Assembly: GCA_012513515.1 (NCBI GenBank)
Contig: JAAZCA010000036.1
Coordinates: forward strand, 9,045-73,044
DNA from: Myxococcales bacterium
Lineage (GTDB): Bacteria > UBA10199 > 2-02-FULL-44-16 > JAAZCA01
Direction of reading: 5' to 3'
Length of the DNA: 64,000 nt
The notes beneath the pieces were generated by a model. The model was not told where the DNA came from. It made no database searches and worked only from the letters and a program-made list of their open reading frames with translations. Positions 1,504 through 33,626 of this stretch are shown here, in pieces. Positions within the stretch are counted from its first letter, which is position 1. Every line of letters begins with the position of its first letter. Position numbers and translations under genes: made by a program.

Positions 1504-3229
1504 AATAACGACATTCCTGTTTTTAATTTTAATGCTGCCGTCATCGGCGGATGCCGTGCTGAGATCCCTATGTGAAGGTTACAAGATAGATTCTTCTGAA
1601 ATAATAAGATTCAATGTCAACGAGAAAAAACTTATATGCGGAGATCACAATGCCGAATCGTGGAACAAAATACCTAGATCACAGGCTAAGTATTTTGCGC
1701 GCAACTTTCTTCAGGAGCGCGGGTATTTGGATCCGGAGTTTAAAGAGGAAGGTGAAAATGTAATAATAGTCGTCGGGGAAAAAACTCGAATTACAGATGT
1801 TTCCATCAAAGGGGCTCCCCCGCGCACATTAAGGGCATGGCAAAAGAGGGGAATCAGGGGTGCTCCGCTCGATCCGAAATCCTTGGACTCGCTCGAAAGG
1901 TGGGGGGTATCGGGTCTCAAGTCGAAGGGGTTTGCATGCCCTCGCGTTTCGGCTTTAGGGGATGCCAGCAGCGGAGGGGTAGAGCTTGAAGTCAACCCCG
2001 GCCCTCGTCTCAATATAGCTTCCCTCGAACAGTCGCCTGTGGAAGGCCTGATGGATGGGGCGCTTGAACGGTTCAATGCGTTTCATGTGGGGGATCCGTA
2101 TGATTATAGGAATATAGCTCTCACCAGCAGAAGGATATCGCAGAGCGGAATACTTCAGAGCAGCTATTTTCTCACCGAGTGCGCCGACGACGGCGTTCAC
2201 CTTACACAGAAATCTATTTCAGGGGCGAGCAGGCTCGTAAGCGCCGGGCTAGGAGGGAGCACCGAGGAGTATCTGATAGGAAAGGCTTCATGGAAGCAGG
2301 GAAGATTGGGTAAAGCAGGATCTTCATTTGAAGTGGCCGGCAGGGCCTCCTACAGGAGACAGCGATTTCTAGTCAAAGGGATGGTCTATCCCTTTTCTTT
2401 TCCGACTCGCTGGCACTTCACGCCCGCCTTTTCGACCAGGAGGGAAAAAGAATCCAGGTACGAGTACCTTGCCAATGATCTTCTTATCCCAGCTGCTGTG
2501 AACTGGGATACCAGGGAAATAGGATGGAATCTTTTTTTCGGGCCGAGATTGAATTACACGAGGGTCTTCAGCGGAGCCGACAAAGGTTGGACGCACTTTC
2601 TATCAGGTATCGCAGGTTTGGAGATCATCAGCCATGTCTATGAGTTGAACGTGGCAGATCCCAAATCCGGTTACACCGTGAGGGGATTGGCTGAGTTCAA
2701 CTCAGACAAGGCGTTTTCCACGATCAGCGCGCAGAAATTCACGTTGTCAGGAGAAGCTCTGTACAATTTTGCAGGGTTCGATTCGCCGCTGCTTATTCTC
2801 TCCATAAGGGGATTCGCCGGTACAACTTTGGTGGATAGCGGCAACGCACAATTTTCCAAGATGCCTCCATGGTTATTTTATTATTTCGGAGGTTCAGCCG
2901 ATCTTCGCGGGTTCGGGCTTAAAAAATTGCCAGATGCTAACAGAGGCGCGCTGACTGCGCTTTACTCGGGCGTCGAAGCGAGGCTGGCGAATATATTTCC
3001 CTTGAACCTTCAGCCTATAGCTTTTGCGGATTTTGGTGTGATGGGTCAGAAGTCGGTCAGTCTTAATCTGCCTGTCTACTGCTCTCCGGGGATAGGTATC
3101 AGGTGGCCATCGCTCATTGGAGTTTTGAGGTTCACCGCTGCAAAGGGTCTGTTTTTGAAAAACAGCACCCCTCCCAAACAAGCCCCTTCGCGCTGGCATT
3201 TTATATTCAGCATAGGGGAGGAGTTTTGA
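1493..3229 (+). CDS. tamA: Omp85-family outer membrane protein (TamA-like translocation and assembly module subunit)
   Basis: Signal peptide; 578 aa (E. coli TamA 577 aa); C-terminal beta-barrel with aromatic-rich C-terminus; immediately followed by TamB-like gene. Confidence 0.65.
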   Translation: MFLRITTFLFLILMLPSSADAVLRSLCEGYKIDSSEIIRFNVNEKKLICGDHNAESWNKIPRSQAKYFARNFLQERGYLDPEFKEEGENVIIVVGEKTRITDVSIKGAPPRTLRAWQKRGIRGAPLDPKSLDSLERWGVSGLKSKGFACPRVSALGDASSGGVELEVNPGPRLNIASLEQSPVEGLMDGALERFNAFHVGDPYDYRNIALTSRRISQSGILQSSYFLTECADDGVHLTQKSISGASRLVSAGLGGSTEEYLIGKASWKQGRLGKAGSSFEVAGRASYRRQRFLVKGMVYPFSFPTRWHFTPAFSTRREKESRYEYLANDLLIPAAVNWDTREIGWNLFFGPRLNYTRVFSGADKGWTHFLSGIAGLEIISHVYELNVADPKSGYTVRGLAEFNSDKAFSTISAQKFTLSGEALYNFAGFDSPLLILSIRGFAGTTLVDSGNAQFSKMPPWLFYYFGGSADLRGFGLKKLPDANRGALTALYSGVEARLANIFPLNLQPIAFADFGVMGQKSVSLNLPVYCSPGIGIRWPSLIGVLRFTAAKGLFLKNSTPPKQAPSRWHFIFSIGEEF

Positions 3230-3230
3230 T

Positions 3231-5784: not shown

Positions 5785-6693
5785 TCAGCGGGCCTGCTTT
5801 TTCAGCCAGTTCCAGCTTTTATCTATGTATTGCTGATAGGACTCGATCTGCTCTTGTGTCATGTGGCGGAAGCGCCCTTGCATCGAGAGATAATCCTGAA
5901 CCGGAATTCCCTTTGGTTCTATGTTGATCGTGTATTTTTCACCATTTTCAACTTCGAATATGGGAAAGACCTTTGAATCGACGGCCTTTCTCATTACCTC
6001 GATGGATTTTTCCGAATCGATTTTCCATCCTGCGGTGCATGAGGCCAGTATGTGAATGAACCGGAACCCCTTTATCTTTTTGGCCTTTTCAAACTTGGCC
6101 ATGAGGTCGTGAGGAAATGCTGGCGAGGTCGTAGCCAGGTAAGGTATGCCGTGCGATGCCATTATCCTATCGATGTTTTTCTTAGGCGTCATCTTCGGAA
6201 AATCAACAGGCGTCGTGGTGGTCCACGTGAATTCCGGTGTTGCTCCGGACTGCTGAATGCCGGTATTCATATACGCCTCATTGTCGTAACAGACGTAGAT
6301 TACATCCTCGTTTCTTTCGGCTGCTGAAGAGAGGGATTGAAGGCCGATGTCGAATGTTCCTCCGTCTCCAGCCCAACCCATGATTTGGGTTGTTTTATTT
6401 TCCTTTATGTCGAGCGCCGCACGGATTCCGGAGAGCACTGCGCCAGTCGTTTCGAAGGCCGTATGCATGAGCGGGACCTTCATGTTTGAGTAGGGAAATG
6501 GCCCTGGGATCACAGCCCAGCAGCAGGCTGGAATTACCACGATGGTGTCTGGCCCGAGAGATTTGAGAGCGAGTCTCATCGCTATCGCGGCGCCGCATCC
6601 GGGGCATGCCAGATGGCCGCTCGTCATCATTTCCGACTGTTCGTAACTCTGTTTGGACTCACCCTGTTTGAAAAGATGTGGATCTGTTCGCAT
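5785..6693 (-). CDS. porB: 2-oxoacid:ferredoxin oxidoreductase beta subunit (TPP-binding)
   Basis: 'CPGCG' plus thiamine-PP binding 'GDG' region typical of PorB/KorB; last gene of four-gene minus-strand operon. Confidence 0.85.
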   Translation of the reverse strand: MRTDPHLFKQGESKQSYEQSEMMTSGHLACPGCGAAIAMRLALKSLGPDTIVVIPACCWAVIPGPFPYSNMKVPLMHTAFETTGAVLSGIRAALDIKENKTTQIMGWAGDGGTFDIGLQSLSSAAERNEDVIYVCYDNEAYMNTGIQQSGATPEFTWTTTTPVDFPKMTPKKNIDRIMASHGIPYLATTSPAFPHDLMAKFEKAKKIKGFRFIHILASCTAGWKIDSEKSIEVMRKAVDSKVFPIFEVENGEKYTINIEPKGIPVQDYLSMQGRFRHMTQEQIESYQQYIDKSWNWLKKQAR

Positions 6694-6705
6694 TATAACC
6701 CTCTT

Positions 6706-7881
6706 CTATTTTTTGAGACCTATCCAAATGTCTTCGGATGGGTGATCTGCTGCTTTCGTTTTGTTATAAACTTCGATGATGGATTCCGGCGTTACATCTC
6801 TTCCTCCAAGGCCTATATGGAAGGTGAAGATATCCGGAGCCTGCGCGATGTCGTAGAAAGCGGACTTGATTTCGCTGCTCCATATTCCGCCGCAGCCATG
6901 GCTGATATTTCTGTCCAGAACGGCTATCTTTTTTATTTTCCTGCCGCCCGAGATGTTTCCAGCCGCCTCACGTAACGCATCGAACGGGAATGGGCGGAAC
7001 ATTCGAATTTTACAGATGCCAACCTTTTCTCCACGTTCGCGGAGTTGTTTTACAGCGACGCGAGCGGTGGACGTCATCGATCCGCTGGTGAGGAACACTA
7101 TTTCAGCATCATCGGCATCTATCATTTCCACGATGTCATTCGGCCTTCCAAATTTCTTTTCGAAATTTTTGGCGATATCGTTATATGTGTTTATCGCTTC
7201 ACGGTGGGCCTTTTCCATTATATAGCGGAACTCCATATAGTTGTCAGGCGCGCAAAGCGGGTTGAAGGTCATTGGCGCGCTCGTGTCGAGCTTATATTTC
7301 GGCTTGAATGGAGGAAGGAACTTATCGACCTCGCTGATGTCGGGAATCTCAACCGGTTCGTAGGTATGGGAGAGTATGAACGAATCGTAGACCACCATGA
7401 CCGGAAGATAGATCGTTTCCGCGAGCCTGAAGGCCATCAGTATGGTGTCGATGACTTCCTGATTCGTTTCACAGTATAGCTGTATCCAACCGGTGTCGCG
7501 CTGTGCAAGCGAGTCGGTCTGGTCGCTCCAGATGCTCCAGCCAGGGGCCATCGCACGGTTGACGTTGCAAAGCACTACCGGGAGCCTCCCATACGCGGCC
7601 CAGAATAAAAGCTCGTGCATTAAAGCCAGCCCTTGCGACGATGTTGCGGTAAATGCCCTTGCTCCGGCCTGCGAAGCCGCTATAGTAGCGGCCATTGCCG
7701 AATGCTCGGATTCCACTTTTATAAACTTGGCGTTGAGCTCCCCTTTTGCGCACATCTCCGAAAGCTCCTCGACTATCTGCGTCTGCGGTGTGATTGGATA
7801 TGCGGATATTACCTCTGTTCTGGCAAGCTTCACTCCGTAGGAGGTAGCGTGATTTCCCATTAGGACTTCTTTTTTTGACAT
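6706..7881 (-). CDS. porA: 2-oxoacid:ferredoxin oxidoreductase alpha subunit
   Basis: PorA/KorA-like N-terminus 'MGNHATSYGVKLARTEVISAYPITPQT'; 391 aa; adjacent to beta and gamma subunits. Confidence 0.85.
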   Translation of the reverse strand: MSKKEVLMGNHATSYGVKLARTEVISAYPITPQTQIVEELSEMCAKGELNAKFIKVESEHSAMAATIAASQAGARAFTATSSQGLALMHELLFWAAYGRLPVVLCNVNRAMAPGWSIWSDQTDSLAQRDTGWIQLYCETNQEVIDTILMAFRLAETIYLPVMVVYDSFILSHTYEPVEIPDISEVDKFLPPFKPKYKLDTSAPMTFNPLCAPDNYMEFRYIMEKAHREAINTYNDIAKNFEKKFGRPNDIVEMIDADDAEIVFLTSGSMTSTARVAVKQLRERGEKVGICKIRMFRPFPFDALREAAGNISGGRKIKKIAVLDRNISHGCGGIWSSEIKSAFYDIAQAPDIFTFHIGLGGRDVTPESIIEVYNKTKAADHPSEDIWIGLKK

Positions 7882-9734: not shown

Positions 9735-10304
9735 TTAGTGTTCGCTTGAAAAAAGAACTTCGTCATAAGCTTCCATGGCGGCCTTAATGTTGGCGTCTGG
9801 TTTTATTGGAACGCCTTTTCTTATCGCATTGGAGATAGAATCCATCGAGCATATGCCGGTTATTCTGCAAAATGCCCCAAGAATTGCGGTATTCACTATC
9901 GGGCTGGTCTGTGATCCGAGCCTGTTTCGCGCAGCTATGCCGCTTGCATCGACGCAGGCGATTTTGAATTCTGACATCTGGGCGGATGCCTTCAGCTCTT
10001 CAGGGGATTTTTTTGAATTGATGAGAACCCAGCCTTCTTTTTTGAATCCCTTGAAGGTGGCCGGATTTTTTAAGAGCGTCGAGTCGAGTATGATGAGGTG
10101 GTCTGGGGTGTATATCTGACTTCTCAGGTCTATTTTTTCTTTGTCTATTCGAACGAATGCGGCCACGGGAGCTCCGCGTCTTTCAACTCCGAATGTTGGG
10201 AATGCCTGAACGAAGTTTCCTTCCGAAAAAATGGCAGTGGCCAGGATCTTTCCGCCGATCACAGCTCCTTGGCCGCCACGTCCGTGAAAGCGAATCTCGA
10301 TCAT
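9735..10304 (-). CDS. porG: 2-oxoacid:ferredoxin oxidoreductase gamma subunit
   Basis: '[18 protein letters not shown]' PorG signature; GGAGGA RBS 5 nt upstream of ATG; first gene of operon. Confidence 0.8.
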
Positions 10305-10401
10305 AGCTCCTCCGCAGCTGAATTAAAACGCACCCCTTCATATAACATGGGGATATCTTGTCAAATGGGATATTGGCTGCGGCCGACCGCGTTGCTAGCC
10401 T

Positions 10402-11292
10402 TTAAATGACGTCTGGAGGGTGTTTAGCGTGTTTTGTGCATTCTTCCGGATCGCTGTGGACCATGAGTCTAGAGTTGGGTATCTTAGCGCGTATTTCGGA
10501 TATTATAATTTCTGTCAGATCGTGTGCTTCACGAAATGAAAGTTCATTTTCAAGCTCCAGATGGAACTCTATGAATTTCTCTCCGCCGACCCATCTCGTA
10601 CGAAGATTGTGGTAACCTTTGGCCATCGGCCTGTGGGCGCGGATTGTCTCTCCGATCAAATCTAGAAATTCCCTGGGAAGCGTTCTGTCCATCAACTGGG
10701 ATATGGCGCTATGTCCTATTCTCGCTGCGGATATTATTATGTAGAGCGATATGAGTATCGATATTATCGGATCGGCATTTTTTACGTGCCACCATTTTTC
10801 AAGCCCCAGCGCAACTATGACTCCGGAGTTGGTCCATATATCCGATGTGAAATTGAGCGCCGATGCCTCGAATGCCGTGGAATTGAATATTCTCCCGGCT
10901 TTTTTCATGCTGGCTGAAAGAAAGATGCTGAATATAACCGAGGCCAGCATGATCCCCAGCGCCAAGCCTTCTTCTTTGAGTGAATAGCCGAGCGCGATTC
11001 TCCTCAAGGCCTGATAGACGAGAAAGCTGGCGGAGACCATTATGAGAACTGCTTGCACGAGCCCGGCTATCGCTTCAGCCTTCGCATGTCCGAATGGATG
11101 ATTTTCATCGGCCGGCTTTTCAGATGCCGATACCGCAAAAGCGGTTATCGACGATGAGAATACGTCCATCAGCGAGTCGAGTGCGCTGGCAAGGACGCTG
11201 ATGGACATGGTGGCGAAGCCTATTGCCCCCTTCACGATTGCGAGAAACAAAGGGATGACTATGGCGACAAGAGCTGTTCTTTTTTTCTGCAT
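10402..11292 (-). CDS. cation diffusion facilitator (CDF) family metal efflux transporter
   Basis: Six predicted TM helices followed by cytoplasmic C-terminal domain; CDF-like 'HxxxD' motif region; 296 aa. Confidence 0.75.
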   Translation of the reverse strand: MQKKRTALVAIVIPLFLAIVKGAIGFATMSISVLASALDSLMDVFSSSITAFAVSASEKPADENHPFGHAKAEAIAGLVQAVLIMVSASFLVYQALRRIALGYSLKEEGLALGIMLASVIFSIFLSASMKKAGRIFNSTAFEASALNFTSDIWTNSGVIVALGLEKWWHVKNADPIISILISLYIIISAARIGHSAISQLMDRTLPREFLDLIGETIRAHRPMAKGYHNLRTRWVGGEKFIEFHLELENELSFREAHDLTEIIISEIRAKIPNSRLMVHSDPEECTKHAKHPPDVI

Positions 11293-21639: not shown

Positions 21640-22929
21640 CTAAGGTGTAAGTCTGTTGAGTAGCCTCGGGAAGGGGATGGTTTCGCGGATATGATGTGTG
21701 CCACATATCCATCCGACGAGACGCTCCAGCCCGTATCCGAATCCTGAATGTGGAACGCTTCCGAATTTGCGCAGGTCGAGATACCATTCGAATGCCTTCA
21801 CCGGTAGGCCGTGTTCTTTGATTCTAGAAAGAAGCACTTCGTATTCATCTTCGCGCTGCGAGCCACCGATAATTTCTCCAAACCCTTCCGGGGCGAGCAT
21901 GTCGGCGCAAAGGGCTAGATGTGGCTCGTTTGGATCGCGCTTCATGTAGAAGGCTTTTACCTCAGCCGGGTATTTTTCTATGAAGATAGGACGATCCATA
22001 TCCTTGGTAAGAAGCGTTTCGTCATCCCCTCCCAGATCATCATTTTCTTTGATGTCGCTTCCCATAGAGCGCAGTTTTTTAACTGCGTCGGCGTGCGTCA
22101 TCCTGTGAAAAGGGAGTTGAACCGATTCGAGCTTTGAGATGTCGCGTTCCAAAATGGCGAGCTCCTCTCGGCGATTCTCAAGGCATCTTTTGACGATGTG
22201 ATATACGAGCTGTTCCTGAATCTCGAGGTTGTTTTTATGATCGCAGAATGCCATTTCGGCGTCCATCATCCAGAATTCGGTGAGATGCCTTCTGGTTTTA
22301 CTCTTCTCCGCCCTGAAAACTGGTCCGAAGTCGAAAACCCTGCCGAGGCTCATGATCGCCGCCTCTAGATACAGCTGTCCGGATTGCGACAGATACGCCT
22401 TGCCGAGGTCGAAATATTTGACTTCGAAAAGTGTAGTGGTCCCTTCGCAGGCCGCAGGAGTTAGGATAGGCGAGTCGATCTTCGTGAAGCCGTTGTTAGC
22501 GAACCATTCATAGGTTCCGTTTATTACCTCGTTCCTGACCTTCTGAATCGCCCACTGTTTTTTGGAACGTAGCCACAGGTGTCGCACGTCGAGAAGAAAA
22601 TCGGGGCCGTGTTCCTTTTTTCCGATGGGATACTCGGGAGCTATCTGCACGATTTCGATGTCAGAGATATGAAGCTCATATTCATCCTTTTTGGGATGCT
22701 TCGAAACTTTTCCGGTGATTATGGCGGAGCTCTCAAGGGTCAGATTGCGTGCGTCGTTCCAGGTTTTTTCCGAGACATCTGGGTGATGAACTATCCCCTG
22801 TACGAAACCGGATCCGTCGCGGATCTGCAAAAATGTAATTTTGCCTGAGCTCCTCAGATTATAGATCCAACCCTTGATGGTGACTGTACTGTCTATGTAT
22901 CTTGAAATATCGCTGATGAAAATATCCAT
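21640..22929 (-). CDS. asnS: class II aminoacyl-tRNA synthetase, most likely asparagine--tRNA ligase (archaeal-type AspRS not excluded)
   Basis: Motif 2 '[22 protein letters not shown]', motif 3 region 'GGSQRE', N-terminal OB fold '[24 protein letters not shown]'; 429 aa. Confidence 0.7.
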
Positions 22930-22936
22930 TTTTTCC

Positions 22937-23815
22937 TCACATCATCAGAAGGTTTCTCTCGATAACTTCCTCGATAAAATTTGAAACGCCGTTTTTAAAT
23001 TCACGGTGTCCGTAGTATATGTTCGCTTTGAGAAAGCCGAGAGGATCGCCGGTGTCGAACTGCCTTCCCTCGTATTCGAACGCGACCATCTTCCCCTCTT
23101 TGGCTAGGGTGTTCATGCCGTCAGCCAGCTGAATCTCGTTGTTTTTACCCGGAGGGGTTTTTTCGAGAATCTTGAAAAGTTCGGATGGGAAGAGATATCT
23201 GCCAACGACCGAAAAATCGGACGGGGCATCTTCCGCCTTTGGTTTTTCGACGACTCCACTGGCGTAGTGATAAGCCCCTTCAGATTTCGCTATATCGTAA
23301 ACTCCGTATAGGTGGATCTGGTTTCTAGGAGTGTGTTCGGTAGCGTTCACAGCGCAGCCGGTTTTGACGTATGCGTCGATCAACTGCTTGCAGCAAGGAA
23401 CTTTGCTTTCTATTATGACGTCTGGAAGAATCACGATGAAGGGTTCGTCACCTACGGCTTCCTTAGCACAAAGTATCGCGTGGCCTAGCCCTTTTGGATT
23501 GATCTGCATCGTTGTCGTTATATTCACTTTTGAGAGAAGTGAATATAGCCCTGACAACATAGCCTCTTTACCCGCCTCCGCCAGCTTCCTGTCGTAGGAG
23601 GTCTTTTTGCTGAAAAATTCCTCGATCTGTTTTTTGTCGGGGGATGATACAAGGATGATCTCTTCTACCCCGGATGAGACCGCCTCCTCTACGACGATCT
23701 GAAGCGTGGGTTTGGTTCCTATGGGCAAAAGTTCCTTAGGTACCGATTTCGTGACGGGTAGAAATCTGGTTCCCATTCCGGCCACAGGGATTACGGCCTT
23801 GCGGACTTTGGTCAT
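22937..23815 (-). CDS. galU: UTP--glucose-1-phosphate uridylyltransferase
   Basis: '[28 protein letters not shown]' canonical GalU N-terminus; start trimmed to MTKVRK. Confidence 0.9.
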
Positions 23816-23887
23816 AATTCCTCCGGGATTGAATTTACTGCAAACTAGCACAGGTATTTTTGCTGTAAAGCGGTAAATTGACGCCAA

Positions 23888-24676
23888 CTAGCTATCCATG
23901 AGGCACAGCGGGCGGCCGGTTTGAGGATCCTGCATAGTTCTAACCTCGGTTTGAAATGTGGCTGCCAGCCTGTCGGACCTTATGGTTTCTTGCGGAGGTC
24001 CATCGGAGATTATCCGGCCATCGCGCATAAGCAGTATTCTGGAGCAAAGCGCAGATGCGAAATTTATGTCGTGTGCTGCGATGATAACCGTCATGCCGAG
24101 TTGGTCTCTAAGTTTTGCGATCGTTTTTCTCAGTGCAGAAAGATGTCCTATGTCGAGAAATGTGGTCGGCTCGTCCATGATGAGCGCTTTGGGCTGCTGG
24201 GCGATAGCTCTTGCGAGAAAGACGCGTTGGCGTTCACCGCCGGAGAGTTCTGATATATCTCGATTTGCGAGCTCTTCACAGTTGACCATCTTCATGGCAC
24301 CCAGAGCGGTTTCTATATCTAATTTCGATTCGAAACCAGTTGCCGGAATGTGAGGGGCCCTGCCCATTAATACCGTTTCGAGGGCTGTTATCGAATATGC
24401 TATTGAAGGGCTCTGTGCGACAAAGGCTATTTTTTTTGCGCGCTCGCGGCATGTCATTTTGCGATTCGGCTTTCCAAATAGGAGAATTTCACCTGATGAT
24501 GGCTTCCTATTTCCGGCGATAAGCGAAAGCAGTGTGCTCTTCCCAGCTCCGTTAGGGCCGAGGACCCCCAGCAGTTCGCCGGGCGAGACCGCGAAGGAGA
24601 CCGTATCTACTGCCATTCTGTTTCCGTAGCTGAATGATATTTCTCGTATATCGAATGCCGTCGTATTTTCAGGCAT
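23888..24676 (-). CDS. btuD: ABC transporter ATP-binding protein, iron-siderophore/cobalamin (FecE/BtuD) type
   Basis: Walker A 'GPNGAGKST', signature 'LSGGERQR', Walker B 'LIMDEPT'; overlaps permease gene. Confidence 0.85.
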   Translation of the reverse strand: MPENTTAFDIREISFSYGNRMAVDTVSFAVSPGELLGVLGPNGAGKSTLLSLIAGNRKPSSGEILLFGKPNRKMTCRERAKKIAFVAQSPSIAYSITALETVLMGRAPHIPATGFESKLDIETALGAMKMVNCEELANRDISELSGGERQRVFLARAIAQQPKALIMDEPTTFLDIGHLSALRKTIAKLRDQLGMTVIIAAHDINFASALCSRILLMRDGRIISDGPPQETIRSDRLAATFQTEVRTMQDPQTGRPLCLMDS

Positions 24677-25670
24677 GGCTCTTCCCCATGTTTTTTCTGA
24701 GAAGTATCATGAACAGAGGTGCGCCTATAAGTGCCGTTATTACGCCGACTGGCAGCTCAGTGGCGTAGTCGGAGTTGGAAAGTATCGTTCTTGCGATAGT
24801 ATCTGCCAAAACCAGAAATGCTGCGCCGGCGATTCCGGAGGCCGGGATCAATAGGCGGTTGTCGGCGCCAAGGGTCAGGCGGACTATGTGCGGCACGAAG
24901 AGCCCTACGAAACCTATGAGTCCGGATGCCGCAACGGCCGCCCCAACCATAACCGACGAACATACGAAGACCGCAGCGCGTATCCTGGAAGGATCGACTC
25001 CTACCGATCTCGCCTCGTCGTCTCCGAGCATAAGGATGTTCATTCTTCTTGCGAGAAGGGAAAGGATTATGAGCCCTGGAATTACCAGCGCCGCTGTTAT
25101 CGCTACCAGCCCCAGCCCCATCTCTTCGAGATTTCCTATTAGGAGGAAGAGGATCTGATACGCCTCCTCCATGGTCACCATGGCGTTGATGAAGAGTATC
25201 AGCGCAAAGCAGAAGGCGTTGAAGATCACCCCGGTGAGCATCAGTTCGGTGGAGCGAAAGGAACTTCGCACCCTGGAAAACCACATGATTGCTATCATCG
25301 AGAGCATTGCGCCTAAAAATGCGGCTCCAGAGATCCATGCGAATGGAAGCCTGAAACCCAGTGCGGCGATGCTGCCTAGTGCAGCGCCTCCTGATACTCC
25401 TAGTATGAATGGGTCAGCCAGAGGATTTTTTAGAAGAGTTTGAAATGCTCCACCTGATGAAGCTAGAGCCATCCCGACGATGGCTGCAAGTAGGACCCTC
25501 GGGAGCCTCGCTCCCAACAGTATGTCGCTGCCAGCTCCGCCGAGAAGCGCTTCAAAGATATCTACCGATCCGCTGCCATGCGACAGGCCAAAATAAATCG
25601 CCGCGAGAAGCAGCACAGTAAGGATCGATATCGAAAACAAAAACTTCTTTTTTGTAAGGTACGATTTCAT
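24669..25670 (-). CDS. btuC: ABC transporter permease, FecCD family (BtuC/HmuU-like)
   Basis: About 9-10 TM helices, FecCD-like glycine-rich segments; 4-bp overlaps on both sides. Confidence 0.85.
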   Translation of the reverse strand: MKSYLTKKKFLFSISILTVLLLAAIYFGLSHGSGSVDIFEALLGGAGSDILLGARLPRVLLAAIVGMALASSGGAFQTLLKNPLADPFILGVSGGAALGSIAALGFRLPFAWISGAAFLGAMLSMIAIMWFSRVRSSFRSTELMLTGVIFNAFCFALILFINAMVTMEEAYQILFLLIGNLEEMGLGLVAITAALVIPGLIILSLLARRMNILMLGDDEARSVGVDPSRIRAAVFVCSSVMVGAAVAASGLIGFVGLFVPHIVRLTLGADNRLLIPASGIAGAAFLVLADTIARTILSNSDYATELPVGVITALIGAPLFMILLRKNMGKSHA

Positions 25671-26506
25671 CTTTCTCCGTGTATAACCCTCGCCAGATTT
25701 TCCAGAGCGTCAGGTAGGCGTGGTCCGGGGCGAAAATCGTCAGCGTTCATTATGTATATCCTGCCGCGCTTGTACGCATCGCAATTTTTTATCTTGCTCC
25801 ACGCCTCTTCCGGGGTGTGCGCCTCGCTTCCCATCGACAGGTCCACTATGAAATCCGGATTCGCTGTTAGTATATCTTCCACCCCTATTCTGGGGTAGGG
25901 CACAGAAGATTTCTTCGCGGCGTTTTCAACTCCTATAGATGAAAGGAGCGTGCCCATATACGAGATATCGCCAGCGGCTATGATGGGCCTTCTTCCCCAT
26001 ATTATGAATCCTTTTTTTTGGGGAGCGCTGCTCCACCTCTTTTTGAGTTCAATAAACTCCTTCTTTATTTGAAGCGCAACTGCATCGGCGGATTTTTTCA
26101 TTCCTATAGTTGCGCCTATTGCCGAGATGGATGAAACGATTTCATCGGGAGTGCTGAATGAAAAAAAACTCGTTTTTATTCCGAGGCTTTCCATTTTTTC
26201 GAATGATCTTCTGCTGGAGTTTTCCTCCGAATTCAGGACGACATCCGGGCGCAGCGCGACTATTTTTTCGATCATAGGGCGGGTGTAGTCACCTACGATC
26301 TGCGGTCTATTTTCCAGAGCTTCCAGTTCGCAGTATTTCGTCGCCCCGACGATCATATCTCCGGCTCCTATCGCGATCAGTGTGTCAGTGATCACCGGCT
26401 TCAGCGATACGATTCGCTTCGGCATCTCGTCGTTCGAAAATAGGTTTTGCGAAGAGAGGGAAGCTATAATCACGAATGTGATTAACACCCCTTCCTTGAT
26501 TTTCAT
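25667..26506 (-). CDS. btuF: periplasmic substrate-binding protein of cobalamin/Fe3+-siderophore ABC family (BtuF-like)
   Basis: Signal peptide; 'RIVSLKPVITDTLIAIGAGDMIVG' class III SBP N-lobe typical of BtuF/FhuD. Confidence 0.8.
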   Translation of the reverse strand: MKIKEGVLITFVIIASLSSQNLFSNDEMPKRIVSLKPVITDTLIAIGAGDMIVGATKYCELEALENRPQIVGDYTRPMIEKIVALRPDVVLNSEENSSRRSFEKMESLGIKTSFFSFSTPDEIVSSISAIGATIGMKKSADAVALQIKKEFIELKKRWSSAPQKKGFIIWGRRPIIAAGDISYMGTLLSSIGVENAAKKSSVPYPRIGVEDILTANPDFIVDLSMGSEAHTPEEAWSKIKNCDAYKRGRIYIMNADDFRPGPRLPDALENLARVIHGER

Positions 26507-26507
26507 T

Positions 26508-27845
26508 TCAGTTCATCCCTGAGAGATCAACCTCATATATAGCACCGCCCATCGATGCATCGGTCGCCGTTTGATATAATACTCCGTCAAATATCGTAGC
26601 GGGGCCGGGGTTTGCAGGGAGTTTTGTTTCTACGGTTCCATCCCATCCATCTTCGGCGGTGTTGAAAAAGATTACTTTGCCTGTGCTGCCAAAGAGGCCG
26701 AAATCCGATGCCGCTGCGACATTTCCGAAAATCTGCAGGGATGATATGAAACTTTCAACTTCGCCAAGCTCCAGTTTGAAAATCCTATCTCCGCTTTGTG
26801 CGTCAATCCCCGCCACCGCGTTCGAAGGCTTTTGCAGGCCTACGAGGATGGCTCCATCCTGCGATATTGGCATCTCAGGGCTTATTATTCCTGTGAGAGG
26901 TCTTCTATCGTCAGATGCCATCGTGTGCGATATTTTATCTCCAGAGGGGAATGAAAATATATCAACCGAAAGTTGCGTTTTTTGGTTGGGGTTAAATCCG
27001 TTTGAACAGAGAACAGCCAGCTTGTCTGAATCCATGGGTGCTACAGCGGTCGGGTTGATCCCTCCCGTGTAGTATGCAGTTGATGCGTCATGGACTACCG
27101 CTCCGAAACCATCGTATGGGAAGCAGATCAGAGTCCCTTCGTTGTGAGTGCTCTTTAATGGGTCCATGTCGATATGATCCATATTGGATGTCACGATGCA
27201 AACGTTGTCCTTTATAAGGGCAGCTCCCGAGGGCATGTTGGGTAGAAAAGCGAGAGGCTTTCCATTTTTATCGGCGATATATTCTTTCGAGAAAATGACT
27301 TCATCAGATATCTTTCGACTGACATCGTTTATCAGGACGAATCCATCAGGAGAGGATCTCGTTATAAGGTGATATCCGCCGGAAAGTATCACGTGGTTCG
27401 ATGGGCGACCGTCGAACTCTTCGAACGATTTCCATGGGGAATTAACACCCCCTATCAGCGACCTTTCCTGCAGAGAACCCTTGGTTGTTTCGCAGGTGAC
27501 AAATACCTTCTGTGACTCATCATCTATTCTGATGCTTGCAGGAAAACCGCATGGCAATTCGGAAAACAGATTTGCCATGGGTGGAGTTGGAGCTGCTGGT
27601 TTAGTTATCTCGGTTAATCCGTCTAAATAATCGATGATGTCGCCAAACGATATCTCTTTTGAAACTTCCGAAGTTTCCGCGTGGGTTACCAGTTCGTCTC
27701 TGATTTTGTCTGTCGGGTCCTGATGGTGAGACAGATCCATAGGTCGGTCAACGTCTGTGACAGCATCGACTTCCTTATCGATAACATCGTTTTTTACCGG
27801 GCGCGGTGCTGGTGAACATCCCCAAAGAAAACCTGCTGATAACAT
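26508..27845 (-). CDS. hypothetical exported (lipo)protein, predicted beta-propeller-like, within B12 uptake locus
   Basis: N-terminal 'FLWGCS' lipobox-like; repeated beta-strand blocks; located between btuB-like and btuF. Confidence 0.4.
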   Translation of the reverse strand: MLSAGFLWGCSPAPRPVKNDVIDKEVDAVTDVDRPMDLSHHQDPTDKIRDELVTHAETSEVSKEISFGDIIDYLDGLTEITKPAAPTPPMANLFSELPCGFPASIRIDDESQKVFVTCETTKGSLQERSLIGGVNSPWKSFEEFDGRPSNHVILSGGYHLITRSSPDGFVLINDVSRKISDEVIFSKEYIADKNGKPLAFLPNMPSGAALIKDNVCIVTSNMDHIDMDPLKSTHNEGTLICFPYDGFGAVVHDASTAYYTGGINPTAVAPMDSDKLAVLCSNGFNPNQKTQLSVDIFSFPSGDKISHTMASDDRRPLTGIISPEMPISQDGAILVGLQKPSNAVAGIDAQSGDRIFKLELGEVESFISSLQIFGNVAAASDFGLFGSTGKVIFFNTAEDGWDGTVETKLPANPGPATIFDGVLYQTATDASMGGAIYEVDLSGMN

Positions 27846-27857
27846 AACTCCTCCTTT

Positions 27858-29771
27858 TTAGTTTTGGATTTCTCCGTTTACGACCGATATGGCGTCGAGA
27901 TCGAAGCCGGCTACCGGTTTTGATCCCGTGCTCTTGCGGTCTTTGATTTTTATGTAACGAGCCCGTGCGACTCCGATTTCCGACAGATCGAATGCATTGC
28001 CTCCCGCGAGGTCAGGATCGAAGGGGCTTATTCCGTTTTTGGAATTTGAATATACCGGCATCGATCCGGCGCATCCATCGTATGGGTAAGCGGATGTGTC
28101 GCATGGGAATGCCTTGAAATTTATTCCGTCTGCGCTGACTTCAACCGATGCCAGTTCAGCGAAGGGGGCGTTTTCATCCCCTCCGATATAGAATGCGTTT
28201 TCAAATATTATGAAATCAGCGCCGGGGCCGTCTACCGCGTGGCAATTGCCGAGGTCCAGCGTGATACTGCCGTTTTTGCCCAGGCTTAAAACATCCAGGC
28301 CTCCTGCGAGCGCGCCATTTCCCTGTGGCGGGCCAAGGACAATATCTGGAAATTTATCCTGCCCAAACCCCGCATCGTATCCGTATTTGACCGATCTGAC
28401 TGCCTGTGCAAATCCCTGACAGGAATCTCCGTCATTTCCTTCCGGGGGGGGCGGAGGGTCGAAGCTTTCGCTATCCCCAGATTGTTCGTTCGGCAGATAT
28501 CTCTTTGCAGGTGCATCGCTATAAACTGCCACGAGCGTCCCCGGATATCCGGTAAGGATGAAGAGATCGGGCCCTTCGTAGTCGATTCCTCTGGTGCCGG
28601 GGCGGACCGCGATCGGGCCTGCTCCGGTGTTTGCACCGGTGGGATTTTCCGTGGTTACTTCGGAGGAATAGCCTACAACTATCGGGTCCTTCACTTCAGG
28701 GTTTGCAATATCGGATATGTCGACCGGATAAACAGCGCTTTTTTCAAAGCTTGCTATGAAGATGTGGCTATTGTCCTGAGAGAGCTTTACATCCGTCATA
28801 TAGTCGCTTTCATCCGTTATCATCAGCGGGTTATTTTTTCCTCTAAGGACGGAGATATTTATGAGGTCTATCTCATAGACTTCTCCAAACGCAGATGACC
28901 CGACAAATGCCAGAGATCCGTCTATGGTCACGGCCGCAGCATGAAATGATGCAGCAACCTGTCCAAGCGGGATGCTTCCGGTTATCTCCATCGTTTCCGG
29001 GTCGGCGATATCTATTACGGAATCGGTTGCAGGAACTGATTCCGCATTTATGATATTGATGACGCCGGAATTTGTTATTATCAATTCTTCTCCATTTCGC
29101 ACCGAGAGCCCCGTTGGGTTAAATGCGCTCGTGACTATTATACCTGCGTCGATCATCGATCCGCCCGACTTAATATCGAACGCTCGAACGATTCCTGGAG
29201 CGGCAACAGCCGGGTTTGTGGTGTTGATGTAATTCGACATGGCTACAAATATCCTGTCGCCGATTCTTGCTATTCCGGATGGAAAATTCGGAGTTATCTT
29301 CTCATCCGACGAAGTTCCGTCCGAGTTTCTATGGTCTTTCCCTATTTCCACATCCGAAAGGAGATTTGTCCTAGAGTGGACTCTTCCGGTTTTAGGGCTG
29401 AAGCGTATCAACGAATTCGAGGTGGTCAAGAACGCATCATCCTGGGATGAAATCAGCAGCTTCGAGGGGATTCCGGATCCATTCGGCGATATCAATCCTT
29501 GAAATTTCGAGGACACCTTCATCGTGTCGGCATTTATATCCACGGCTATTACTCCTGCAGGGGATGATGTGCTCACTATGAACGCGGTCGAATCCATCCC
29601 TTTGATATCCGGTATTACGATGTCGGATGGAAAATCGCTGGATAAAATAAATGATGGCGGCGCGAGAGATTCATCTTCATTTGGAGGAGGCCTGCTCTCT
29701 ATCTCGCTGCTCCCGCAGGCGATCAAAAGCGTAAAAAAGATCACCGGTAAAATTCGAATATTCTTTTTCAT
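27858..29771 (-). CDS. hypothetical surface lipoprotein, beta-propeller-like N-region plus C-terminal beta-sandwich-like domain, within B12 uptake locus
   Basis: Lipoprotein signal 'FFTLLIACGSS'; proline-rich linker 'DPPPPPEGNDGD' separating two regions; immediately downstream of TonB-dependent receptor. Confidence 0.45.
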   Translation of the reverse strand: MKKNIRILPVIFFTLLIACGSSEIESRPPPNEDESLAPPSFILSSDFPSDIVIPDIKGMDSTAFIVSTSSPAGVIAVDINADTMKVSSKFQGLISPNGSGIPSKLLISSQDDAFLTTSNSLIRFSPKTGRVHSRTNLLSDVEIGKDHRNSDGTSSDEKITPNFPSGIARIGDRIFVAMSNYINTTNPAVAAPGIVRAFDIKSGGSMIDAGIIVTSAFNPTGLSVRNGEELIITNSGVINIINAESVPATDSVIDIADPETMEITGSIPLGQVAASFHAAAVTIDGSLAFVGSSAFGEVYEIDLINISVLRGKNNPLMITDESDYMTDVKLSQDNSHIFIASFEKSAVYPVDISDIANPEVKDPIVVGYSSEVTTENPTGANTGAGPIAVRPGTRGIDYEGPDLFILTGYPGTLVAVYSDAPAKRYLPNEQSGDSESFDPPPPPEGNDGDSCQGFAQAVRSVKYGYDAGFGQDKFPDIVLGPPQGNGALAGGLDVLSLGKNGSITLDLGNCHAVDGPGADFIIFENAFYIGGDENAPFAELASVEVSADGINFKAFPCDTSAYPYDGCAGSMPVYSNSKNGISPFDPDLAGGNAFDLSEIGVARARYIKIKDRKSTGSKPVAGFDLDAISVVNGEIQN

Positions 29772-29781
29772 TCGATATCTC

Positions 29782-31752
29782 CTATATCCCTGCTCCGAGA
29801 GTTACCCAGTAACTCCTGCGAGGGAGAGGAAATCCCCTTGCATCGTATATCTGCACGTTGGTCACGTCCCTGACCTCGGCGGTAGCAAAGAAATGCTTTG
29901 CGAATTTCACAGTGGTTCCCAGATCTATTGCTGTATGCTGCGAGATCCAAACCGTGTTTGATGTATTGGATGGAAAGGATCCGATGTAGTGCAGCGTGCC
30001 GAAAAGGATCACTGGTTTTATCGTTCCGCGTACGCCTACGTTCAACTTGTGTTCAGGCCTTCCCGGCAATCTAAGCCTTCCTCCGGCGAATTTTGCATCC
30101 ATCCATGAATAGTTTGCTTCCAGGTGAAGCTGCTTAACAGGATCCATGCTGATGCCAACCTCGACGCCATTCGTGATGGCCTTGTTCGTATTGACAGGCT
30201 CGATCGTAGTGGCGGAGATCGGTACGAAGATGATCTGATTCTCGATTCGATTCTGAAAAAAGGAAAATTCGAGGCTCACGTACTTTGGGCCTATTATGAA
30301 TCCGGCATCGAAGTTTAGTGAATGTTCGTCTTTCAGTCGCGGGTTTCCACGCAGATACCCCTGGTCTGGATAGTACAGTTCGGAAAAATTTGGGTATCGG
30401 TATGCGGTCTGGACGTTTGATTTTAGAGTCAGCCATGGCAGCGGTTTCCCCGACAATCCGACGCGCCAGCTCGCCCGAAATTTCCTGGAGGTTGCCTTCT
30501 CCAGACGTATCTGAGGAGATAGTATAAGCCTGTCGCCGAGAAATCCGACCACCTCTTCCAGAAAAAATGTGCCGGTATTCCGGGTATGGCTTCCCATGGT
30601 AGGGGTGGATGGTATCGGCGAGAGATCTTTTGCGTGATCGAATCTGTATTGTCCTCTTGCGGTGGATGCTAAATTTATACTGCGCCACGATGCGATGTGC
30701 ATGACCTGCGCGTGCGCCTCCGGCGTGTAGCTTATGTAGGTCACGTCTATAGGATTTCCTATTGCAGGAGTGGGGTCCTTGAAATGGTCGTCATCGAAGA
30801 AGAATGTCGCGCCGCTTTGAAAGGAGAGCGGATCCATGAAAAATTTTTCAATTTCAAAGAGTACGTTAGATGTGTTTCGAAATATCTCCTGTTTGGCTTC
30901 CAGAGGATTTGTCGGGCTAAGCAGGGTGGTTTCTTCCTCCATCCCGGGAACTTCTCTATTCGTCCAGAAAAAGTCATTTGCTAGCGATATCTTCGTATTT
31001 TCAGAAAGCCTGATCCTTCCTTTGACGAGTACATTTTCGGCTATCGAACGGTTGTTTTCACGAGTCAGCGTCCTTGAAGCGCCGATTCTTCCTCCTGCCA
31101 TGTTTACCGCCGCAGTTTTGAAGGTGAAGTCTCCCGCGGTAGACCTGTGGCTGTGCGCTAGAGTCATATCTCCGTTTTTAAATGGTTCCGACCAGGATTC
31201 GGCGGTCTTGAGAGTTAGGAAGGATCCTCCGGTCAGCTTTACATCGATGGAACGCTTGTCATGTGCTTCTTTGGTGACGATGTTGATCACCCCGCCTATG
31301 GCGTCGGTGCCGAAGCGCGCCGACGTCGCTCCGCGTATAACCTCGATTCGTTCTATGGCATCTAGAGGGATTGTGGAAAAATCCACTGCGCCGAAGGTGG
31401 AAGAGTTGAGCCTGACACCATCGACAAAAACCGCAACCTGCTCCGCTGATGAGCCTCGTATAGATACGGTAGAGAGTTGTCCTTCGCCGCCGAGATTTGT
31501 CACGTCGACTCCGAGAGTTTCAGAGAGGATCTCTGAGGTGGTCTTCGACTGGTCGAAGTATTTGTCAGGTTTTATGATTGTAGCGAATGAGCCGGTGCTT
31601 TCGAGAGATTCGTATTCGTTTCTCCCCTTTATCTGGATTTCGCCGATGTCGGCGCTATCGCTTGCCTTCGAGGGCAGAGGTGCGCACAGGAGAAGGATCA
31701 AAAAAATAAACCTCCTCCGCTGGAGAAGGTTTTGTGTGAAGCGAGGCTTCAT
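29782..31752 (-). CDS. btuB: TonB-dependent outer membrane receptor (BtuB-like; cobalamin/corrinoid receptor inferred from riboswitch)
   Basis: Signal peptide at MKPRF...; plug region near 'TVSIRGSSAEQVAVFVDGVRLN' and C-terminal beta-barrel; start trimmed from ORF-track 31920 because upstream sequence is a riboswitch. Confidence 0.85.
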   Translation of the reverse strand: MKPRFTQNLLQRRRFIFLILLLCAPLPSKASDSADIGEIQIKGRNEYESLESTGSFATIIKPDKYFDQSKTTSEILSETLGVDVTNLGGEGQLSTVSIRGSSAEQVAVFVDGVRLNSSTFGAVDFSTIPLDAIERIEVIRGATSARFGTDAIGGVINIVTKEAHDKRSIDVKLTGGSFLTLKTAESWSEPFKNGDMTLAHSHRSTAGDFTFKTAAVNMAGGRIGASRTLTRENNRSIAENVLVKGRIRLSENTKISLANDFFWTNREVPGMEEETTLLSPTNPLEAKQEIFRNTSNVLFEIEKFFMDPLSFQSGATFFFDDDHFKDPTPAIGNPIDVTYISYTPEAHAQVMHIASWRSINLASTARGQYRFDHAKDLSPIPSTPTMGSHTRNTGTFFLEEVVGFLGDRLILSPQIRLEKATSRKFRASWRVGLSGKPLPWLTLKSNVQTAYRYPNFSELYYPDQGYLRGNPRLKDEHSLNFDAGFIIGPKYVSLEFSFFQNRIENQIIFVPISATTIEPVNTNKAITNGVEVGISMDPVKQLHLEANYSWMDAKFAGGRLRLPGRPEHKLNVGVRGTIKPVILFGTLHYIGSFPSNTSNTVWISQHTAIDLGTTVKFAKHFFATAEVRDVTNVQIYDARGFPLPRRSYWVTLGAGI

Positions 31753-31784
31753 GCGCTCCCTCTTTCCGCGAAGAGTTGCAGCTT

Positions 31785-31950
31785 GAAAATGCGGCGCAAG
31801 GTTTCCTGGCTTCGAGGGGATCTCTTTTTGCCTCGCCTTCCCGCCCCGCGGTAGGCGGGACAGTGACTTGCGGCAGAAGGGTGTTCCTCTTACAGTGGCG
31901 GGACCGCGCGGGATTTTCACCCGGCTTCCCTTGAACGTCGAATCAGCAAA
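31785..31950 (-). ncRNA. cobalamin (B12) riboswitch
   Basis: Minus-strand RNA reads AAGGGAAGCCGGGUGAAAAUCCCGCGCGGUCCCGCCACUGUAAGAGG...GAAGCCAGGAAACCUUGCGCC, matching the conserved GGUGAAAAUCC / CCCGCCACUGU core and B12-box (AGCCAGGAnACC) of the cobalamin riboswitch; directly upstream of the TonB receptor start. Confidence 0.85.
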
Positions 31951-31961
31951 TTGTGCGGCAT

Positions 31962-31990
31962 CACTAACAGGAAGGGATATCGCTTGTCAA
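31962..31990 (-). promoter_or_regulatory. candidate sigma70-type promoter for riboswitch/btuB transcript
   Basis: minus-strand TTGACA, 17-nt spacer, TTAGTG about 10 nt upstream of riboswitch 5' region. Confidence 0.3.
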
Positions 31991-33095: not shown

Positions 33096-33167
33096 GGGCG
33101 CATAACTCAGCGGAAGAGTGCGATCCTCACACGGTCGAAGTCGCAGGTTCAAACCCTGCTGCGCCCA
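33096..33167 (+). tRNA. tRNA-Val (anticodon CAC)
   Basis: Cloverleaf folded by hand: acceptor GGGCGCA/TGCGCCC, D stem ACTC/GAGT, anticodon loop CUCACAC, T arm GCAGG-TTCAAAC-CCTGC; CCA not encoded. Confidence 0.9.
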
Positions 33168-33246
33168 CAAAAAGCTGCGCCAAATCGGGAGTTCAAACCC
33201 AGCAACGCCCACAGTAGGACAGGGAGTAGGGGTAGAAAAGTGGAAT

Positions 33247-33318
33247 GCCCCCGTAGCTCAGTGGATAGAGTACCTGCCTCCGGAGCAGGTTGCGCAGGTT
33301 CGATTCCTGCCGGGGGCG
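33247..33318 (+). tRNA. tRNA-Arg (anticodon CCG)
   Basis: Acceptor GCCCCCG/CGGGGGC, anticodon stem CCTGC/GCAGG loop CUCCGGA, T loop TTCGATT. Confidence 0.9.
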
Positions 33319-33422
33319 CAGGAGATTTGTTGTGCGGATATCCCCTCTATTTTCCATTTTCTATTTTCGTAAAATGGGAAACAGGAAATTGAAAATGGGC
33401 GGAAATTTGTAAAACGGATTTT

Positions 33423-33470
33423 GGGGCAGTAGCTCAGCTTAAGAGAGCACCACGTTCGTCCCGACGTCCG
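33423..33470 (+). pseudogene. tRNA-Ala-like 5' half (truncated/pseudo tRNA)
   Basis: First ~36 nt (GGGGCAGTAGCTCAGCTTAAGAGAGCACCACGTTCG) nearly identical to 5' half of downstream tRNA-Ala, then no complementary anticodon stem, T arm or acceptor 3' strand. Confidence 0.45.
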
Positions 33471-33553
33471 CATTCCTCCGTAGGCGGGATTTGCGGCGTC
33501 GAGGATCCTCGATGTGACTGACAATTTTTTGCTTTACCCCTTATGGGTTGAGA

Positions 33554-33626
33554 GGGGCACTAGCTCAGTTGGGAGAGCACCACGTTCGCAACGTGGGGGT
33601 CGAGGGTTCGAATCCCTTGTGCTCCA
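33554..33626 (+). tRNA. tRNA-Ala (anticodon CGC)
   Basis: Acceptor GGGGCAC/GTGCTCC with G3:U70 Ala identity pair, anticodon loop UUCGCAA, T loop TTCGAAT. Confidence 0.9.

Follow-up and report, generated by a model that had tools for sequence, protein, structure and literature searches.

The B12 operon

We analysed a window of 64,000 nucleotides (nt) from contig JAAZCA010000036.1 (assembly GCA_012513515.1), which carries a B12 operon containing two uncharacterised lipoprotein genes, called here P637 and P445 after the lengths of their products in amino acids (aa). Coordinates are window positions throughout and the operon lies on the minus strand (Table 1). It runs from a cobalamin riboswitch through a BtuB-like TonB-dependent receptor, P637 and P445 to BtuF-, BtuC- and BtuD-like transport genes. 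The original prediction, made from the letters alone, had placed two reading frames of 637 and 445 aa between the receptor and btuF-btuC-btuD and had put the operon under riboswitch control. Both frames were confirmed at the coordinates listed, and the aptamer scores above the gathering threshold of its covariance model, upstream of the operon genes and on their strand. Gene overlaps had been taken as a sign of co-transcription; neither lipoprotein gene overlaps a neighbour, the successive gaps from the receptor to P637, P445 and btuF being 10, 12 and 1 nt and the only overlaps falling at btuF/btuC (-4) and btuC/btuD (-8), but co-transcription of P637 and P445 with their neighbours is still likely.

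The best NCBIfam matches of the receptor are TIGR01779 TonB-B12 (181 bits, E 3.2e-53) and BtuB (133 bits), both far under the curated cutoffs of 600 and 836. We infer its B12 specificity from the riboswitch and the BtuFCD genes that share the operon.

Table 1. Features of the B12 operon and its surroundings (window coordinates)
Feature	Position	Strand	Basis and details
Cobalamin riboswitch aptamer, RF00174, at operon head	31782-31969	-	79.6 bits vs gathering score 31.5, E 5.8e-18, full model 1-189
Terminator-like hairpin and T-run	31708-31732	-	11-bp stem AAACCTTCTCC-AGC-GGAGGAGGTTT, then ATTTTTTT
BtuB-like TonB-dependent receptor, 656 aa	29782-31752	-	ATG at 31752 with AGAGGGAG ribosome-binding site; Plug 8.7e-23, TonB_dep_Rec_b-barrel 3.7e-33
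P637, BtuGH-like lipoprotein, 637 aa	27858-29771	-	Open reading frame, homology and model
P637 signal peptide and lipobox, residues 1-19	29715-29771	-	Textbook lipoprotein signal, MKKNIRILPVIFFTLLIA followed by C19
P637 seven-bladed beta-propeller, residues ~36-423	28503-29666	-	AlphaFold2 model, Foldseek, hhalign
P637 linker, residues 424-450	28422-28502	-	Pro-rich, acidic, disordered; RYLPNEQSGDSESFDPPPPPEGNDGDS; 6 Pro and 7 Asp/Glu in 27 residues
P637 C-terminal beta-sandwich, residues 451-637	27861-28421	-	AlphaFold2, hhalign vs BtuH; two conserved Cys pairs
P637 segment matching LIC_13355, residues 484-556	28104-28322	-	NCBIfam, sub-threshold, E 3.4e-10
P445, putative accessory lipoprotein, 445 aa	26508-27845	-	Open reading frame and homology to P637 propeller
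P445 signal and lipobox, unusually short	27816-27845	-	MLSAGFLWG followed by C10; start fixed by stop and ribosome-binding site
P445 acidic low-complexity tether, residues 11-95	27561-27815	-	18 Asp/Glu vs 8 Lys/Arg in 85 residues
P445 propeller domain, residues 96-445	26511-27560	-	Assigned by homology to P637 propeller
BtuF-like periplasmic binding protein	25667-26506	-	Peripla_BP_2 5e-27; best NCBIfam match BtuF 5.4e-27, below cutoff
BtuC-like permease	24669-25670	-	FecCD 1e-80; best NCBIfam matches are BtuC models
BtuD-like ABC ATPase	23888-24676	-	ABC_tran 2.1e-34; NCBIfam
GalU (UTP-glucose-1-phosphate uridylyltransferase) and asparagine-tRNA ligase (AsnS)	21640-23887	-	After btuD; gaps 0 and 7 nt
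Perfect TTGACA	31985-31990		
Three-tRNA gene cluster	33096-33626	+	
Omp85-family and TamB-like gene pair	1493-5579	+	

P637: signal and predicted fold

Lipobox-like N-termini had been proposed for both proteins. In P637 the lipobox is textbook (LIA followed by C19); Cys19 is invariant among 46 aligned relatives, and all 48 family members have a signal composed of an n-region, an h-region and a Cys. That of P445 is atypical, with only nine residues before its Cys.

AlphaFold2, run on the 46-sequence alignment, gave a P637 model with a predicted local distance difference test score (pLDDT) of 86.9. Its 28 strands were assigned to seven four-stranded blades, and block-mean pLDDT exceeds 90 across most of the propeller, falling below 50 at linker residues 428-433. 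The C-terminal domain modelled alone reached 91.7. The propeller character, Pro-rich linker and C-terminal beta-sandwich of the original prediction are thus all found in the models. The two Cys pairs of the C-terminal domain are retained or lost together in relatives (C451/C510 present in 42 and absent in one; C557/C567 present in 43), consistent with disulfide bonds in a protein located outside the cytoplasm. The propellers of P637 and P445 are both acidic, their net charges being about -25 and -20.

Comparison of P637 with BtuG

Comparison with BtuG and BtuH structures had been proposed as a check. In a Foldseek search of the PDB, the P637 model found as its top match 8blw_B, which is BtuG1 in the BtuB1-BtuG1 complex of Bacteroides thetaiotaomicron (E 2.8e-12, 714 columns). 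BtuG1 is a natural fusion of a BtuG propeller with a BtuH B12-binding domain (PMC10404256). The match is about 1000-fold better than any propeller-only match, the next being Lp49, YncE and WD40 proteins; BtuG2 bound to adenosylcobalamin (8bmz_A) was matched at E 3.3e-8.

Sequence profiles were compared using 13 diverse BtuG sequences taken from Supplementary Table S2 of PMC6143338. Aligned by hhalign, the P637 family matched this BtuG profile with a probability of 95.3% (E 2.3e-8) over 166 columns, corresponding to blades 3-6 by our blade assignment, and the reverse comparison gave 94.1%. The maximum over 20 column-shuffled alignments was 1.7%. Identity in the regions aligned with BtuG or BtuG1 is about 12-13%.

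Comparison of the C-terminal domain with BtuH

A set of four BtuH domains was collected by tblastn against plasmid-labelled Bacteroidota records. It consists of a BtuG1 orthologue from B. finegoldii (annotated DUF5074, 655 aa), a 593-aa orthologue of BtuH2, in which all eight published B12-contact residues stand at their published positions, and two Persicobacter proteins with BtuH domains. The profile of the P637 C-terminal domain matched this set at 89.1% (E 2.3e-6, 82 columns), and a single BtuG1 sequence at 6.4%. Controls were low: shuffled alignments gave at most 0.8%, the BtuG propeller 0.4%, and P445 and a true DUF4465 protein 0.1% each. At a relaxed alignment threshold the match runs colinearly to the C-terminal strand.

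Three motifs, the best conserved in either family, align between the P637 family and BtuH, respectively LSLGxxG(E/G)I with LSLGAFGG, DF(I/V)xFENAF with DFxIYGNAF (DFCVQGNAF in BtuH2), and AExGxVSVS with SExGIVxV. Within the second, N525 and F527 of P637, invariant or nearly so in the family, align with BtuH2 N399, which contacts the B12 phosphate, and F401, which contacts the lower ligand (PMC8941943). Equivalence to BtuH2 Q333 is ambiguous (GFGQ vs PGQF), and W577 possibly corresponds to P637 F623, by eye only.

DUF4465 is the BtuJ family, not BtuH (PMC13398666). Assignment of the C-terminal domain to DUF4465 (PF14717) was rejected: Pfam gave no match and hhalign only the 0.1% stated above.

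A separate sub-threshold NCBIfam match joins the core of the domain to the LIC_13355 family (Table 1). LIC_13355 is an outer-membrane lipoprotein of pathogenic Leptospira that has been studied as an adhesin and has no known B12 role (PMC11891782). If the P637 domain is BtuH-like, this family might be so too.

P445

P445 is a divergent copy of the P637 propeller: a 25-sequence P445 alignment matches that propeller at 98.5% (E 3e-15, 281-362 columns), and propeller paralogues in three related loci (L013, L014 and L020) score against the profiles of both families and bridge them. It evolves fast. A word-indexed search returned three members even with a profile, whereas exhaustive HMMER searching returned 60 representatives, 27 of them below 1e-30.

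The short signal is the true N-terminus here: reading upstream, an in-frame stop (TAA) is met after 12 nt, and a strong AGGAGG stands at the right distance. The lipobox Cys is conserved in orthologues, whose h-regions are longer and end in WGC, LGGC or LAGC. Signals in the P445 family have no Lys/Arg n-region, and several are extremely short before the Cys (MLSAGFWGC, MLSGFGC, MNAGGFIWLAGC; P0052, P0053, P0057, P0071). The tether is far richer in Asp in orthologues than in P445 itself. Evidence for P445 as a corrinoid-capture protein is weaker than that for P637.

Related loci

Among 5.8 billion proteins there are 48 clusters of the P637 family, which is present in 15 species genomes of GTDB. 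The sources are all uncultured environmental metagenome-assembled genomes (MAGs), with records labelled Deltaproteobacteria, Pseudomonadota, Myxococcales or simply 'bacterium'; these lineage names follow the organism given by INSDC in the title of each record. Enough upstream sequence was present at 12 of the 15 GTDB loci, and in all 12 a Cobalamin or AdoCbl (adenosylcobalamin) riboswitch on the same strand precedes a TonB-dependent receptor, after which comes the P637 homologue. Two further distinct loci have the same order, which therefore holds in every one of the 14 related loci for which upstream sequence is present. BtuFCD genes are present wherever the contig reaches far enough downstream, except in one split and rearranged case, L006 and L028. 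These are two contigs of a single MAG (JACQOX01): L006 ends just past the P637 gene, and L028 (88-2460) opens with a P445-like gene, after which come a Y1 transposase and AsnS but no BtuFCD. They may represent a rearranged or decaying operon.

Three architectures were found. In the first, shared by the window, L001, L003, L005 and L018, the order is receptor, P637, P445 and BtuFCD; two short contigs (L025, L026) keep P637, P445 and BtuF. In the second (L007, L010, L011, L015) there is no P445, and the receptor is followed by a P637-like protein of 700-822 aa, some with an inserted Big_2 domain, and then by BtuFCD. In the third (L013, L014, L020) the receptor is followed by a propeller alone, a protein joining an immunoglobulin-like (Ig) domain to the C-terminal domain, a second propeller paralogue and BtuF. 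The separate propeller and C-terminal-domain genes lie at L013 9833-13782, L014 2-3749 and L020 8001-12866, the C-terminal-domain gene having an N-terminal extension; in L020 a 254-aa TPR protein precedes BtuF.

The C-terminal domain thus keeps varied company. Big_2 is inserted between it and the propeller in P0041 and in L010, and a free-standing lipoprotein of Big_2 plus C-terminal domain (P0046, locus L019) is encoded directly upstream of BtuFCD. The domain swaps between Ig-type partners and propellers, as has been described for BtuH (PMC8941943).

At L022 the slot after the P637 homologue, where P445 would stand, holds a DUF4465 (BtuJ family) protein (E 3e-56) with an EGF-like segment. This suggests that the accessory binders are interchangeable. 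B12 binding has been demonstrated biochemically for the eight DUF4465/BtuJ family members tested (PMC13398666). The L022 features lie at 6150-7253 and 9897-10505, and a TonB gene follows btuD there.

Proposed function

We think it fairly probable that the operon takes up corrinoids through its BtuB-like receptor by way of a BtuGH-like layer of capture lipoproteins or lids, in the style of Bacteroides but in an uncultured lineage outside Bacteroidota. The analysis establishes the operon anatomy, riboswitch, lipoprotein signals, predicted folds, remote homology and strictly conserved genomic context, whereas corrinoid binding, surface exposure, a lid-receptor complex and an order of hand-off are inferred. 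Under B12 scarcity the riboswitch would permit expression of the operon. P637, lipidated at Cys19, would be anchored in the outer membrane, where its propeller would cap the BtuB-like receptor as a hinged lid, capture corrinoid and pass it to the receptor. The C-terminal BtuH-like sandwich, on its flexible Pro-rich linker, could serve as a second capture or hand-off site, as in BtuG1, and P445, on its long acidic tether, as an accessory lipoprotein for capture or relay, playing the part that falls to BtuK, BtuH or BtuJ in Bacteroides. BtuF and BtuCD would finish import.

Among known proteins the closest parallel to P637 is BtuG1 (BT1490, a 'BtuGH' fusion; 8BLW chain B). Both have a lipoprotein signal, a seven-bladed propeller, a linker and a C-terminal beta-rich domain, both are encoded immediately after a BtuB or BtuB-like receptor gene behind a cobalamin riboswitch, and profile-profile comparison links both halves, the C-terminal one less firmly. 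P637 differs from BtuG1 in showing no BLAST or Pfam similarity to it, in its identity of only ~12-13%, in its shorter C-terminal domain and in belonging to a different phylum-level lineage. BtuG2 (BT1954; 3DSM, 8BMZ), the surface lipoprotein lid of BtuB2 with femtomolar affinity for B12, is likewise an acidic seven-bladed propeller lipoprotein tied genetically to btuB and btuFCD, and its B12-binding face is negatively charged (PMC10404256); unlike P637 it has no C-terminal domain, and it ranks below YncE and Lp49 as a fold match. The YncE/YVTN propellers and leptospiral Lp49 (3VGZ, 1L0Q, 3BWS) represent the general fold class of both propellers and have no link to B12 uptake, whereas P637 is set apart by its operon context and fused BtuH-like domain.

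BtuH2 (BT1956; 7BIZ) consists of Ig/PKD domains with a globular, B12-binding domain at the C-terminus. The P637 C-terminal profile covers the first ~100 residues of that domain (LSLGxxGG, DFxIxGNAF, SExGIVxV), and the P637 family too has proteins of Ig (Big_2) plus C-terminal domain in B12 loci; the two Cys pairs of P637 are missing from BtuH, and the second half of BtuH has no counterpart in P637. At 89% the profile match is not decisive. P445 resembles BtuK1 and BtuK2, accessory lipoproteins with PKD domains and a seven-bladed propeller, in being a second, putative accessory propeller lipoprotein of its operon. It has no PKD domain and derives from the P637 propeller. BtuJ (DUF4465), which occupies the P445 slot in L022, is unrelated to P445 in sequence.

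The original prediction of BtuG-type capture lipoproteins in another lineage is therefore upheld in context, fold and profile homology, while its suggestion that they are possibly 'non-homologous' is probably wrong: P637 looks like a very remote homologue that shares the architecture of the BtuG-BtuH fusion, and P445 is a divergent paralogue of the P637 propeller.

Points against the proposal

Several results weigh against the proposal, some of them for both proteins. At E<=0.01 neither P637 nor P445 matched any Pfam model, including DUF5074 (PF16819), the BtuG family, which a real BtuG1 orthologue did match. Searches of NCBIfam and of PDB sequences, with single sequences as well as family profiles, likewise gave nothing for either protein apart from the sub-threshold LIC_13355 match. 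P637 lies outside DUF5074 by sequence, with no BLAST-level similarity to BT1954, BT1490 or BT2095, and its comparisons with BtuH give a mixed picture; we therefore file it as working like BtuGH and probably descended distantly from it, not as a member of either family. No PDB chain was matched by the P637 or P445 family profile (E<=1) or by the C-terminal domain profile (E<=10), and BtuG chains were absent from these sequence-search matches.

For the P637 propeller, the Foldseek comparison with bare propellers places it no nearer to BtuG2 than to YncE or Lp49, so that propeller homology may hold only at the superfamily level, and at 12% identity the positions in P637 that would correspond to W194, W272 and Y316 of the BtuG2 cavity could not be located. 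The C-terminal domain is ~80 residues shorter than BtuH, and the missing segment includes the corrin-contacting H476, Y510 and W511 of BtuH2. Its model found only weak matches in the PDB (Foldseek E ~1e-3, template modelling (TM) scores 0.3-0.45), with CBM32/discoidin-type sandwiches ranking above BtuG1; BtuG1 stands at rank 6 with a query TM-score of 0.44, joint-highest among the matches listed, and BtuH2 (7BIZ) falls outside the top 50.

P445 is the weaker case. Its signal is atypical, with nine residues before the Cys and no Lys or Arg in the n-region, and a direct relationship to BtuG is unsupported, hhalign giving 2.5% with three sequences and 2.3% with 25.

The loci bring further difficulties. 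Homologues had been expected to sit at B12 loci; this is so for all 14 related loci described above, where a riboswitch and receptor are present, but not for every relative of P445, two of whose family members (459 and 525 aa) are encoded in tandem at L023 8001-11022 (= L024 7013-10034) with neither a TonB receptor nor a riboswitch nor BtuFCD genes lying within 8 kb. At L005 (6536-9945) a receptor 29% identical to that of the window is followed by an extra propeller lipoprotein of 423 aa and only then by the P637 and P445 homologues, so P637 is not always the immediate neighbour of the receptor. The extra lipoprotein, as a single sequence, scores 94.9% (E 4e-8) against the BtuG profile and 17.8% against the P637 family. 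The BtuG profile therefore also detects other receptor-linked propellers, and this lipoprotein may belong to a second, more BtuG-like lineage outside Bacteroidota.

Alternative explanations

The most serious alternative concerns the side of the membrane on which the proteins act. P637 and P445 could be periplasm-facing lipoproteins that pass corrinoid from the receptor to BtuF, or that stabilise the receptor from inside, instead of surface lids. Most diderm lipoproteins outside Bacteroidota and spirochaetes face the periplasm. Lipoprotein lids of TonB receptors, according to Price et al. (bioRxiv 10.1101/2023.03.17.533168), occur almost only in Bacteroidota. This placement would also suit the P445-family signals, which have no charged n-region and in several members carry Asp at +2 after the Cys, and no obvious dedicated surface-lipoprotein export gene was seen near the operon. 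We nevertheless consider it unlikely, given that BtuG1, BtuG and BtuH, the nearest relatives by structure and by profile, are without exception surface proteins and that the periplasmic step is already covered by BtuF. A long flexible tether with an additional binding module would serve well for catching ligand outside the cell, and in L022 the place of P445 is taken by a surface binder of the DUF4465/BtuJ type.

It is also rather improbable that P637 is a generic receptor lid whose C-terminal domain is a CBM32/discoidin-like glycan anchor, with corrinoid bound by the receptor alone. The top Foldseek matches of the domain are CBM32 and F5/8-type-C modules (E ~1e-3), its weak NCBIfam match is to LIC_13355, a family with no known B12 role (PMC11891782), and the corrin-contacting residues of BtuH lack counterparts in P637. 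The structural matches, however, are all weak (TM at most 0.45), and Pfam models for CBM32 and F5/8 type C (discoidin) gave no match at E<=5. BtuH2 itself is reported to resemble only, and modestly, an alginate lyase bearing a carbohydrate-binding module (PMC8941943). The BtuH profile match, at 89%, is specific, with shuffles reaching no more than 0.8% and other beta-rich families scoring 0.1-0.4%; it includes the motif that touches the B12 nucleotide loop. The free-standing C-terminal-domain protein of L019 is encoded directly upstream of BtuFCD. With weak fold matches only, a carbohydrate-binding module was not accepted as the identity of the domain and is retained as a minor alternative.

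That the propellers are lactonase-like or amidase-like enzymes remodelling or releasing corrinoids at the envelope, instead of passive binders, we regard as very improbable: many six- and seven-bladed bacterial propellers are hydrolases, and relatives show faint Pfam matches to Lactonase, Arylesterase, Cytochrom_D1 and NHL, but these are far under threshold and confined to distant paralogues, the invariant residues (mostly Gly, Pro and structural positions) form no evident catalytic or metal-binding constellation, and the nearest characterised relatives are non-enzymatic binders.

Expression signals and flanking genes

The terminator-like hairpin lies inside receptor codons ~7-15 instead of in the stretch that separates the aptamer from the start codon, and GGAGGAGG stands in its 3′ arm. 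It may be an unusual riboswitch expression platform, or else the receptor start may be further downstream. No clear promoter could be identified: the perfect TTGACA upstream of the aptamer (Table 1) has no convincing -10 box, and the -10 position would overlap the aptamer match.

The three-tRNA cluster lies just upstream of the operon promoter region, on the opposite strand. Downstream of the B12 genes, the pair of GalU and AsnS genes recurs in L001, L003, L005 and L018; in L010, L019 and L022 only AsnS is found there. At L023 a gene for a B12-binding radical SAM protein lies ~5 kb upstream of the tandem P445-family genes, on the other strand. The Omp85-family and TamB-like gene pair in the window confirms a diderm envelope.

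Implications

BtuG has been stated to be exclusive to Bacteroidetes and BtuH nearly so (PMC6143338, PMC8941943, PMC13616437), the latter being confined essentially to Bacteroidota apart from three Firmicutes (PMC8941943, PMC13616437), and a 2026 review lists the distribution of B12 relay components beyond Bacteroidota as an open question. Our results suggest that the BtuG/BtuH-like strategy of B12 capture is not confined to Bacteroidota. A more far-reaching interpretation, which we put forward tentatively and with some doubt, is that capture of the BtuG/BtuH type is not a Bacteroidota invention and is instead an older modular system that survives, highly diverged, in uncultured environmental diderms. 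P445 would then found an unrecognised family of corrinoid-binding propellers, and the shortened C-terminal domain would be a minimal BtuH-type B12-binding module, possibly shared with Leptospira LIC_13355. Such diderms would need a surface-lipoprotein export route of their own.

The P637 family offers a concrete, testable case of a BtuGH-like design far outside Bacteroidota. If B12 binding is true, it would widen the sequence space of B12-binding propellers and BtuH-type domains, provide a compact (~190 aa) B12-binding module for engineering and improve the annotation of riboswitch-regulated B12 loci in metagenomes, and it would prompt one to ask by what route lipoproteins reach the surface of these bacteria.

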